IMG/VR virus record: IMGVR_UViG_3300021085_000113
Location: 1 to 33,981 of that record
Length of the DNA: 33,981 nt
DNA from: a virus
Lineage: Duplodnaviria; Caudoviricetes
Strand: one strand, 5' to 3'
Position numbers and translations under genes: made by a program. The notes below the pieces were generated by a model that worked only from the letters and a program-made list of their open reading frames with translations, searched no databases and had not been told where the DNA came from. Positions 5,206 through 10,459 of this stretch are shown in pieces; position 1 is the stretch's first letter; the number at the start of each line of letters is the position of its first letter.

Positions 5206-5899
5206 CTAAATAATATCCGTCTATTTCGTTAATTGTTTTTGCGTCTTTATGCTTTTCGAACCACTCGGGGTGCTTCTTCTCCATCCACTTGAGTACCGCT
5301 TCTAAGCTTTCTCCACCTTTGACTTCATCCTCTTTCTCAGGCCTCCACTCGGGGTTGTTTCCAATCCATTTGTTGAGGGCATAACCCCATTTTGCGAGAG
5401 GGGTTCGTCCTTGCTTCCAACCGTTTGCTTCGTAGTGGGCAAAGAATTGTTCAGCTTTTCGCTGAGGGTTGGGAATGCGTCGTTGCTTGAAATACTCCAA
5501 GCATTCGGCGAAATCCTTCGGCTTCCTGTTTTCCCCAATGTCCTGAGAGGAAACTTTTTTCTTTTTGACCCCTTTAGGGGGTTTTTCTTTTTGGGAAGGA
5601 GAGGGGGGAGTGGGGGGAGAGGGAACCCTTTTGCTTTTAGGTTCCAATGTGGCACCACTTTCCTTTTCAGAATTATCAGTGGAATTATGCTCAACCATAG
5701 TAGTAGTCTCGCTTTCCTCATGATTCTCACCCACTTTATCATTTTCAAATGTGGTGCCACATGTGGTGCCACCCAATTGAATGGCAAGTAAAACATTTGC
5801 CACACTATTTTTCGACTCACCCGAAAGGTGCGCCAAAGCCTCGATTCTAGTGATGATTTCGTCACTAGTTCGGAGGTTGAGTCTGTTTCGATTAGACAC
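5189..5899 (-). CDS. Replication initiator with RHH-like N-terminus
   Basis: Directly upstream of dnaB; low-complexity middle with PPTPP; C-terminal AEQFFAHYEANGWKQG..W..W motif of phage initiators; internal DNA repeats. Confidence 0.7.
   Translation of the reverse strand: MSNRNRLNLRTSDEIITRIEALAHLSGESKNSVANVLLAIQLGGTTCGTTFENDKVGENHEESETTTMVEHNSTDNSEKESGATLEPKSKRVPSPPTPPSPSQKEKPPKGVKKKKVSSQDIGENRKPKDFAECLEYFKQRRIPNPQRKAEQFFAHYEANGWKQGRTPLAKWGYALNKWIGNNPEWRPEKEDEVKGGESLEAVLKWMEKKHPEWFEKHKDAKTINEIDGYYLDEFRN
5645..5772. repeat. Putative origin iterons GTGG-NN-CCAC
   Basis: ATGTGGTGCCAC tandem at 5749-5760 and 5761-5772; inverted GTGGCACCAC at 5649-5658. Confidence 0.55.
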
Positions 5900-7982: not shown

Positions 7983-8222
7983 TTATATTTTTTCGTGTAT
8001 GTTGAATTCATTGCAATTCACGGGGTTCTTATTGCTACAAATCTCTTCGACTTCATCTCGTCTGTAGCGAAGCGACTTCAATGCAGGTAGCCTTATGGGT
8101 TTGAGAATATTCTCCTTCTCCCAGTGCTTTAAAAGCCTGTACCCCGCAGTACCACCGAGTCGAAGCATTTTCAAGACCTCACTGCCTTTCATTAGTGTTG
8201 AATTAGTAATTGTTTTATCCAT
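7983..8222 (-). CDS. Excisionase-like winged-helix protein
   Basis: LMKGSEVLKML....YR...W...IL.PIRL...LRYRRDEVE MerR/Xis-like pattern; first gene of the early operon. Confidence 0.7.
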   Translation of the reverse strand: MDKTITNSTLMKGSEVLKMLRLGGTAGYRLLKHWEKENILKPIRLPALKSLRYRRDEVEEICSNKNPVNCNEFNIHEKI

Positions 8223-8229
8223 GTGTTCT

Positions 8230-8257
8230 TTTGTAGCACTTGTGACAAGTGTTGCAA
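8230..8257 (-). promoter_or_regulatory. Leftward early promoter with an overlapping palindromic operator
   Basis: Minus strand TTGCAA-N16-TACAAA with extended TG; perfect inverted repeat CACTTGT-G-ACAAGTG at 8237-8251 in the spacer. Confidence 0.65.
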
Positions 8258-8377: not shown

Positions 8378-8608
8378 ATGACAAAAATAAAACCAACCCA
8401 AATCGGCGTTAACTTTAGGTTACGGGCCGACCTTCATGAGGAAATGACTCAATTGCTATCTAAGACCGAAAAATCTTCCGCTTCGTTCATAACGAATGCA
8501 ATTGAAAACTACCTCGCCTTAATAAAACAAAAAACAAATCCCAATAAAGTTGCTCTAAAAATAGACCGCTTTGCCTGGGATTTGTGTCAAAAAATAGAAA
8601 ACAAATAA
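8378..8608 (+). CDS. Ribbon-helix-helix (Arc/CopG-like) regulator, candidate repressor
   Basis: VNFRL alternating strand followed by two helices (...SASFITNAIENYL); AAGGA SD; divergent from the early operon. Confidence 0.7.
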   Translation: MTKIKPTQIGVNFRLRADLHEEMTQLLSKTEKSSASFITNAIENYLALIKQKTNPNKVALKIDRFAWDLCQKIENK

Positions 8609-8613
8609 AATAT

Positions 8614-9042
8614 ATGCAAAATTCAACTATCAGCTACATTGACGGGGAAGAACAAATCCTCGAATTTCCCGTGTTGTCTGGGAACCTGAAAAATCTGAAA
8701 GTCAATGGAGAGGATATATTGCAAACACATGACATTGCCAAGAAAACTGAAACGCTTTCTCGGCAAATAAGAGTAATTGCAGTATTGGCAAGTTTGATTG
8801 CCATAGCGGTACTCGTGTTGGTATCTCTGATTTACCATTACGAGGATAATCAAAAAAGGAATTTAGCAACCTTATTGATAAACGAGAAAAATCATCACAT
8901 CGAGATGATTAATGCTGTCCACTCCCGGCAACACCTCGCGAGCAGACTATACGAATTGACTGGAAATACATGGGTCAAGGACAAGTGGGTAGTCGACCCA
9001 AATTGGGTGGAACTTGGCACCAACTTGTCACCAAGGCCCTGA
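8614..9042 (+). CDS. Single-pass membrane protein of the lysogeny operon
   Basis: Long hydrophobic segment VIAVLASLIAIAVLVLVSLIY; ATG 8614 follows the RHH stop. Confidence 0.65.
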   Translation: MQNSTISYIDGEEQILEFPVLSGNLKNLKVNGEDILQTHDIAKKTETLSRQIRVIAVLASLIAIAVLVLVSLIYHYEDNQKRNLATLLINEKNHHIEMINAVHSRQHLASRLYELTGNTWVKDKWVVDPNWVELGTNLSPRP

Positions 9043-9072
9043 GGGTCAGTAAAGACGGGGAAGTTAATCGCC

Positions 9073-9110
9073 TTACAAGTGAGGTGCTCTACCAGCTGAG
9101 CTAAGGTGGC
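9073..9110 (-). tRNA. 5' half (nt 1-38) of tRNA-Thr(UGU); a fragment, not a complete tRNA
   Basis: GCCACCT TA GCTC AGCTGGTA GAGC A CCTCA CTTGTAA; the next bases GGCGA cannot close the anticodon stem; no T-arm or acceptor 3' strand follows. Confidence 0.9.
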
Positions 9111-9134
9111 GAATCGCAAAAGCAATAAGCCAAC

Positions 9135-9162
9135 ACACTACTAAAATACAGAGGAAATGCAA
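9135..9162 (-). promoter_or_regulatory. Putative promoter reading into the tRNA half
   Basis: TTGCAT-N16-TAGTGT ending 24 nt before tRNA position 1. Confidence 0.5.
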
Positions 9163-9185
9163 CAATAAAGCCATTTTCCTTAAGT

Positions 9186-9221
9186 AAAAAGGGGCTTCTT
9201 TTAATCGAGAAGTCCTTTTTT
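9186..9221 (+). terminator. Intrinsic terminator, possibly bidirectional
   Basis: AAAAA-GGGGCTTCT-loop-AGAAGTCC-TTTTTT. Confidence 0.65.
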
Positions 9222-9311
9222 ATTTACTTCACTGTTCATCACGATTACTCATAAATTTACAGATTTTATGTCACCACTTATGTCACCATCCCCAAAAATC
9301 ATGTCACCACT

Positions 9312-10322
9312 ATGAAAAAGTATAAGCGAACGGTTAGGGGTGAAACTAAATATGTGATTGATGTTATGCATCATGGAAAGCGTAGGCGAAAAAGTTTTTC
9401 CGACTTTGGTGAGTCTCAAAGATTTGAGAAAGATGGTGGGCTGAATGAATGGTTGTCCAGTTTTGAAGAACAACCCGATGGGCATAATACTACGGTTTCG
9501 GTTGGAATAAAGAAATACTTAGAAAATTACCAAAGCAGATATCCAGATGCGAGGTGGAGTCATATAGAGTCGAGGCTAAGTTATTTATTAAAGTGGGGAC
9601 TTGGTGGTGAGAAAATTGACTCACTTGACGTTCAATACATTCAACGGCGGGTAGAGGAGCAAACTTCATGGAAAACAGCTTCAAGTAAGTACACCTATAA
9701 GAATCAATTTGTAATATTTTTAAATTGGTGCGGCTTAATGGGGTACTGCAAGAAAACCAAATGGGAAATTAAAACACTCAGAATGCCCCCGAAAGAAAGA
9801 GAGATTGGAATTTTAACTCCCAAACAAGCTGAACTGTTACTCAACGAAGATGGAGGCGAGCGAAATAATTCCCGTTCGTGGGAGAAATATAAACCATCCC
9901 TTGCTATTATGTTATTTGCCGGACTGCGACCGCAGGGTGAAATGGAAAAGCTTGATTACTCTCATATAAAGCATGGTGAGTCTATTAGCGTTCCCGCTTC
10001 AAAGACACCCTCTCGATTTATTACGGAATTGCCTGATAATTTGTGGTCATGGATACCCGATAAGAAAAGTGGCCCCGTGATGCCATCATGGAAGGGAATG
10101 AACCAAAGTCGGTCAAGAGCAGTTAAGAGACTAGGATTTAAATATCCAGGTGATGGAGCGAGGCATAGTTTCGGCTCGTATGGATACTGGATGTATGGAC
10201 TAGAGTGGACGATGCACACGATGGGTCACATGAACTACAATACCTTTAAAACTTACTACATGAATAAAAAAGTATCTAAAGCTGAAGCAAAAAAGTATTT
10301 TAGTATAGATACGGATTCGTAA
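9312..10322 (+). CDS. int: Tyrosine integrase
   Basis: FAGLRPQGE (R), SKT (K), DGARHSF (R), MGH, KTYY (Y); N-terminal arm-binding-like region. Confidence 0.92.
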   Translation: MKKYKRTVRGETKYVIDVMHHGKRRRKSFSDFGESQRFEKDGGLNEWLSSFEEQPDGHNTTVSVGIKKYLENYQSRYPDARWSHIESRLSYLLKWGLGGEKIDSLDVQYIQRRVEEQTSWKTASSKYTYKNQFVIFLNWCGLMGYCKKTKWEIKTLRMPPKEREIGILTPKQAELLLNEDGGERNNSRSWEKYKPSLAIMLFAGLRPQGEMEKLDYSHIKHGESISVPASKTPSRFITELPDNLWSWIPDKKSGPVMPSWKGMNQSRSRAVKRLGFKYPGDGARHSFGSYGYWMYGLEWTMHTMGHMNYNTFKTYYMNKKVSKAEAKKYFSIDTDS

Positions 10323-10347
10323 CCCTTTTCGTAACGCTTCGTAACGC
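10316..10347. repeat. Direct repeats TTCGTAAC x3 at the integrase stop
   Basis: Copies start at 10316, 10328 and 10338. Confidence 0.85.
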
Positions 10348-10459
10348 TTTTCTTGATTAAATAAGGTAGGAAAGTATTTTAATATTCACCCTCTAGAGCC
10401 GATAAGTAAAGGGATTTAGCACAATGGCTAAAGGCAGTCCCCTTTAACGATAGTTTGAC

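Follow-up and report, generated by a model that had tools for sequence, protein, structure and literature searches.

The stretch of DNA analysed here, referred to as the window, is a single phage contig of 33,981 bases that encodes terminase, DnaB, SSB and Rad52-like genes. The contig lacks a terminal repeat, and its final ORF continues past the sequence end, indicating that it is incomplete; its putative capsid protein had no match among 50,697 GenBank phage records. The features around the half tRNA gene that is the subject of this analysis are the following.

7983–8222, minus strand: small MerR-type HTH gene (weak Pfam match to MerR_1, E 0.003, below the cut-off)
8378–8608, plus strand: ribbon-helix-helix-like gene (from a cluster of look-alike proteins, 29% of whose members carry RHH_1)
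9015–9022 and 9026–9033, plus strand: two arm-type repeats, across the core from the integrase (motif count, positional conservation)
9073–9110, minus strand: nucleotides 1–38 of tRNA-Thr(UGU), the att core homology (exact match to eight whole host tRNA genes)
9073–9079, minus strand: anticodon loop of 7 nt, where strand exchange is predicted (overlap region; end point of host identity)
9135–9162, minus strand: predicted promoter, with -35 TTGCAT at 9162–9157, a 16-nt spacer and -10 TAGTGT at 9140–9135 (host-trained matrix, conservation)
9185–9222, plus strand: conserved hairpin followed by a T run (RNAalifold, eight-row alignment)
9269–9276, 9281–9288 and 9302–9309, plus strand: three arm-type repeats on the integrase side (motif count, positional conservation)
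9312–10322, plus strand: tyrosine integrase of 336 amino acids (PF00589 in homologs, 37-sequence profile, catalytic residues)

The integrase that was originally predicted next to the tRNA half belongs to the tyrosine family. As a single sequence it matched nothing in Pfam, NCBIfam or PDB; most of the more distant of its 106 homologs carry PF00589, however, and a profile built from 37 sequences matches solved tyrosine integrases (best E 6e-11). Catalytic residues R206, K231, R284 and Y316 are invariant in the alignment and H306 is nearly so; in the H-x-x-R motif, D281 takes the place of the first His. The closest annotated phage matches are integrases of Akkermansia phages, at 29–33% identity. 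A 12-nt unit that overlaps the integrase stop codon is repeated three times at 10316–10349, with apparently about five copies in the related phage locus L017.

On the tRNA half's far side, the product of the MerR-type HTH gene would be excisionase-like, and its divergent pairing with the ribbon-helix-helix-like gene is likely to form a lysogeny switch, both assignments being offered as leads. The two small regulators are separated by a 13-bp inverted repeat at 8231–8257, a candidate operator. Under the host promoter matrix described below, the top-ranked site of the whole window is at 8619–8591 on the minus strand, directed leftward across the ribbon-helix-helix-like gene and towards the excisionase-like gene.

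The minus strand from 9110 to 9073 is identical at 38 of 38 positions to nucleotides 1–38 of host tRNA-Thr(TGT), the host genes having been called by ARAGORN, and the identity stops exactly at the end of the anticodon loop, just as the original prediction had described. An exact search with this core covered 185,579 species genomes and returned nine loci, all in MAGs of Opitutales/Opitutia/Puniceicoccaceae: eight are whole tRNA-Thr(TGT) genes and one is a phage-type half. The host gene that had been supposed to match 9073–9110 is thereby found, and a marine phage clade that was otherwise unplaced is now assigned to Opitutales hosts. The last base of the anticodon loop is the end point of host identity both in the window and in the related locus L002, with identity running 0–6 bases beyond it in other phage variants; in the window, the bases past 9073 do not rebuild the anticodon stem. 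From this end point we infer that the crossover falls within the loop, 9073–9079.

A viral search with 29 nt of the core yielded 16 viral loci. Eight are halves, each beside a homolog of the integrase; the remaining eight have the tRNA in full, in most cases as part of a tRNA array in a larger phage. Larger phages with a whole tRNA-Thr(UGU) that is identical or nearly so, often in an array, are represented by L011–L014, L019, L020, L022, L104 and L105; these phages may share the same hosts, and their tRNA may be a second target for the window's integrase. A different phage, at L023:1010–3029, has a 436-aa integrase of 25% identity, the same 38-nt front half, other repeats and no matching promoter motif, and is an independent user of the same tRNA site.

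Could the half gene be something other than, or in addition to, an att core, either a tRNA gene of the phage that is split or has decayed, or a sequence expressed as a tRNA-half RNA? The idea draws on the whole copies of this tRNA in 8 of the 16 viral loci, on the incompleteness of the phage genome, and on the transcription of the half that would be expected from a promoter in the free phage. The original prediction had itself named a matching 3′ half elsewhere in the phage as grounds for giving up the attachment site. In the window, the longest match to the host tRNA 3′ half is 8 nt, and both ARAGORN and Rfam came back empty; the 3′ half is also missing from all five related phage records searched (the window and these five being all incomplete, at 18–87%). 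A split gene is argued against by this missing half, and also by the position of the front half, which stops at the loop, has arm repeats on both sides and in every case adjoins an integrase. Moreover, the sequence that follows the half is unconserved and folds differently across nine variants. We therefore regard a tRNA gene or tRNA-half product as very improbable, and treat the half gene below as the core of an attachment site.

Eight att regions were compared (those of the window, L002, L010, L015, L016, L017, L028 and L036), with duplicates, near-duplicates and the truncated L025 excluded. Among them, L028, whose integrase is 63% identical, carries a second allele of the host tRNA, and L036, like L033, is a metagenome-derived locus. 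In all eight the integrase is followed by two or three arm repeats, then by a hairpin and T run on the integrase strand, next by a promoter-like motif and the front half, with one or two further arm repeats last. The arm-type repeats that had been noted on both sides of the core hold up well. Their motif, TG(G/T)CACCA, has 11 copies in the window (1.93 expected), a count reached in none of 100 shuffles, and five of the 11 copies lie within 300 bp around the core, two on the far side and three on the integrase side. In every one of the eight variants, one or both of the far-side repeats occupy -47/-58 (±1) relative to the core; on the integrase side, seven variants have three copies and L028 has two. 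Between variants with long and short leaders, the spacing of the integrase-side repeats from the core shifts by about 11 bp, or one helical turn. We infer that the five repeats are bound by the integrase. Further copies of the motif lie at 5650 (plus strand), 5752 and 5764 (minus strand, 12 bp apart), inside a 236-aa ORF upstream of DnaB; those at 5650–5771 are possibly origin repeats or secondary integrase sites.

The hairpin at 9185–9222 has 16 pairs, three of them with changes on both sides (RNAalifold on seven variants, L028 excluded), and the T run that follows is invariant across the eight-row alignment. A terminator scan did not call it; it is likely a terminator that guards the integrase gene against read-through.

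The promoter-like motif upstream of the half requires closer attention. The original prediction described it as sigma70-like, and this part needs qualification: a generic sigma-70 scan makes no call at 9135–9162, but a matrix trained on the host places TTGCAT-N16-TAGTGT second of the window's 135,804 candidate sites, and all eight phage variants have an identical -35 box. The matrix consists of two boxes derived from 22 distinct upstream regions of host tRNA-Thr genes, picked by a TTG-anchored rule, such that the rank is that of a TTG-anchored matrix. The spacer is 16 nt in 13 of these host regions and 17 nt in seven. Across the eight phage variants the mean pairwise identity is 1.00 for the -35 box, 0.85 for the -10 box, 0.44 for the first 10 bases of the spacer and 0.84 for its last six; even where integrase identity falls to 63%, the -35 box and the 16-nt spacing are retained, whereas the sequence of the spacer drifts. 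Among hosts that have the window's tRNA allele, the shared pattern is TTGCA(T/A)-N15–17-TAnnnN, with TTGCAT as the -35 box in six of seven and TTGCAA in the other. In one host locus, L077, the -10 hexamer is identical to that of the window; among the phage variants, L002 shows a weaker -10. Such a pattern would be expected of a conserved promoter that was either copied from the host tRNA promoter or converged on it.

Runs X1–X3 provide a further view of this segment. At 9114–9152 their contigs differ from the window at eight promoter and leader positions, among them a change in the -10 box in the direction of the L015/L018 type, and their main contigs are otherwise identical to the window in the parts compared; the promoter segment thus looks mosaic in the population. 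The one RNA run covers 8400–8742 of the phage and does not reach the promoter site.

An alternative is that the front half is indeed supplied by the phage, and that the upstream motif is a site for an accessory protein or for recombination, with the rebuilt tRNA transcribed from elsewhere. The failure of the generic scan would fit such a site, as would the conservation of the last six spacer bases, which are kept like the -10 box and could mean a protein site. The leader between the -10 box and the tRNA half is 24 nt in the window and either 13–14 or 24 nt among the variants, one helical turn apart; the helical phase to the core is thus kept, which suggests a phased recombination complex. Other front-half elements (L023, and G010 and G265 described below) lack the motif, so it is not required for the front-half form. 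On the other hand, both boxes and their spacing match those of host tRNA-Thr promoters, to the extent of ranking second in the window; there is no IHF consensus in 8950–9350; and upstream there are a hairpin and the arm repeats, with no other evident promoter. On balance we consider it unlikely that the motif is something other than a promoter, and continue with the promoter reading.

What would such a promoter transcribe? The E. coli operon thrU-tyrU-glyT-thrT-tufB is the precedent for the suggestion, made in the original prediction, that the phage promoter captures a tRNA/EF-Tu operon and thereby controls host translation genes. This part does not survive. In the host loci tRNA-Thr(UGU) is solitary according to ARAGORN, the exception being L003, where a tRNA-Ser lies 2.7 kb away with opposite-strand genes between. 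None of 23 host loci has an EF-Tu gene or an adjacent tRNA downstream, over the 0–6 kb of DNA examined per locus, and in five of five host genomes tuf maps to a different contig, where tRNA-Thr(GGU) and tRNA-Trp flank it. In 16 of the 23 loci the next ORF downstream runs on the opposite strand, and in three it is unseen; in the other four it shares the strand of the tRNA and lies 68–525 bp downstream; these four are what remains in favour of capture of any downstream gene. A monocistronic host gene had been named beforehand as the finding that would count against operon control, and it is what the hosts found here have. Because tRNA-Thr(UGU) stands alone in the Opitutales hosts, takeover of an EF-Tu operon is wrong as a description of this site, and we give operon capture next to no credence: the phage gains no control of translation genes through its attachment site. 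In the closest hosts, the gene upstream of the tRNA encodes a radical SAM protein like spore photoproduct lyase (SplB-like) and ends about 60–75 bp before it. The tRNA allele had one match per genome in 22 of 23 matching genomes, with 151 searched.

Given an exact tRNA front half and a promoter-like motif beside an integrase, the phage likely inserts at this gene and rebuilds it from the front. The reading we favour, at a probability of about 85%, is that the locus is the attP of a temperate phage predicted to infect marine Opitutales, whose integration would rebuild tRNA-Thr(UGU) from a phage front and a host back, under a phage-borne promoter. In this model the integrase would bind the five arm repeats and exchange strands within the 7-nt anticodon loop. 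One prophage end would then read divergent integrase, terminator, phage promoter, whole tRNA and host downstream DNA, and the other would read host promoter, orphan front half and phage DNA. The phage motif, with the same -35 box and the same 16-nt spacing, would be a like-for-like substitute for the host promoter, and its task would be the upkeep of a solitary, apparently single-copy tRNA rather than the control of other genes. A promoter of tRNA type would face the same phage arm before and after integration, and no regulatory switch is therefore implied. Towards that arm, the promoter is antisense to the ORFs at 8584–9042 and 8378–8608 and directed at leftward genes. No conserved terminator was found in the arm beyond the front half; a terminator scan gave one weak match after the half, at 9000–8986, which is unconserved in the other variants.

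Integrated forms were sought in several collections. A metagenome scan for promoter plus core gave seven loci, all of them free attP, of which L034 is apparently the window's own record and four repeat viral loci. Neither these seven nor the 16 viral loci include a junction between the window's phage clade and a whole tRNA. The integrase was absent from the five host genomes searched, and there was no prophage of the clade among 301 Opitutales genomes, 90 of which have distant integrase homologs (at best 44% identity over the catalytic part). The 30 best integrase loci from the 301 genomes were classed by coordinates and motifs: 15 lie downstream of a whole tRNA or tmRNA, six are beside a 3′ fragment, two are divergent and upstream of a whole tRNA, and seven are without a tRNA. 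Far ends were sought only for the two divergent loci and for G209, which is discussed below.

The two divergent loci, in G010 at tRNA-Thr(UGU) and in G265 at tRNA-Leu(UAA), have distant integrases and show both predicted junctions, on separate contigs. At the first junction, upstream genes are followed by the front half and then by non-tRNA DNA with arm-like repeats; at the second, on the other contig, a divergent integrase precedes the whole tRNA. The G010 element ends at the same base of the tRNA-Thr(UGU) loop as the half in the window. The paired ends of these front-half elements are L091 (G010:C149) with L098, and L099 with L100 (G265). The element of G010 is longer than 16 kb and has helicase-, primase- and ATPase-like genes, with no evident capsid genes in the part seen. 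These distant relatives lend indirect support to the claim that the attP supplies the 5′ part of the tRNA, with crossover in the loop.

A nearer case, also indirect support for the site, is found in the MAG G001, where contig C24 begins (L094:53–890) with an 83.5%-identical copy of window positions 8917–9358 that includes just 16 integrase codons, along with the arms, the promoter motif and the front half. The copy is followed by a truncated oxidoreductase fragment and then the SplB-like gene, about 390 bp away, and is oriented as predicted for insertion at the tRNA. Its -10 has changed to TTGTAT, and on the same contig the host promoter that follows the SplB-like gene has a broken -35 box, with the tRNA missing from its usual location. 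Another contig of this genome, C85 (L107:1–76), has tRNA nucleotide 1 as its first base and runs on through host genes in synteny with those of other hosts. We read the C24 copy as a prophage remnant or a tandem junction, with a misjoin possible. One scenario is that most of a prophage was deleted, that the sole tRNA-Thr(UGU) was left on phage-derived DNA, and that a second phage then reused the site, front-half docking acting as a ratchet by which a phage promoter supplants that of the host for good. We consider this history rather doubtful; if true, it would mean that the prophage end cannot be deleted and that tRNA promoters are being swapped in wild marine Verrucomicrobia.

In the assembled contigs of X1 and X2, host-type upstream sequence at a depth of 5–6 ends at a 30-base node where a phage contig at a depth of 140–194 starts. 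This fits a junction, or equally a repeat shared by uninfected host and free phage, and we have not counted it as evidence. For habitat, runs with small shares were left out.

As to how this arrangement evolved, the nearest integrase in a genome is that of G209 (L037), which is sister to the window's clade (SH-aLRT 99–100). It shares with the window a divergent integrase, arm repeats, an A-run plus hairpin, and a core, all in the same order, but differs in that a displaced 3′ fragment (back half) resembling tRNA-Ala(GGC) comes next, followed by host genes, which is the usual form. The far end of the G209 element was sought and not found. The window's front-half form is likely derived from a back-half ancestor of the same geometry. 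The attP of the window had been called reversed, which is imprecise: the geometry of integrase and tRNA is the same as in G209, and only the half carried differs. Both integrase trees were built by a quick method, and L023 and L040 have long branches in them. A single clade of six front-half rows was rejected (AU p 2e-11, in a test of 18 of the 37 rows with the group chosen after the first tree was seen). With a single origin rejected, the front-half form seems to arise repeatedly, by switching of the half carried rather than by reversal of the site; the tree suggests that such switches occur within one integrase family while the geometry is unchanged. An implication is that prophage finders restricted to displaced 3′ ends would miss front-half elements.

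Finally, the site can be compared with systems already described. The usual 3′ form is treated in PMC1635311, in the portion available, and recombination with the 5′ region of the target is called "considerably less frequent" in the accessible part of PMC6563490, which cites Zhao and Williams 2002 and several archaeal cases; the 5′-region case cited there involves another host and another target than those of the window's phage. The accessible portions of PMC9897764, PMC4611503, PMC11476347 and PMC12540744 contain nothing on 5′ fragments, and the literature covered, mostly outside subscription journals, yielded no report on the window's clade and none that tests a phage-borne promoter at a 5′-fragment attP. 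Marine phages have been tied to hosts by identity between attP and tRNA, including a Verrucomicrobia group, G11 (Mizuno et al. 2013, PMC3861242). As in those phages, the combination of an integrase and an exact tRNA fragment (36–46 bp there) gives the host group here; which half of the tRNA they carry is unstated in the part of that paper available.

The closest parallel is with the genomic islands of Islander (Hudson, Lau and Williams, PMC4383910), of which, according to the portion available, 159 of 3,919 have a 5′ fragment. These islands share with the window's phage a tyrosine integrase, an anticodon-centred site and restoration of the target by element-borne sequence, and their 5′ fragment remains upstream of the whole gene, as our model predicts for the integrated phage. 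They differ in that the present case has a free phage attP and a conserved promoter-like motif, whereas Islander, in the text available, is silent on the source of the promoter. What the window offers is a clean, alignable example of the form found in about 4% of Islander islands, in which a putative replacement promoter is visible as a conserved copy of the host tRNA promoter pattern; this predicted stand-in promoter and the remnant in G001 are the points of interest. The front-half attP itself is a known, uncommon arrangement, to which the window's site adds one well-conserved example.
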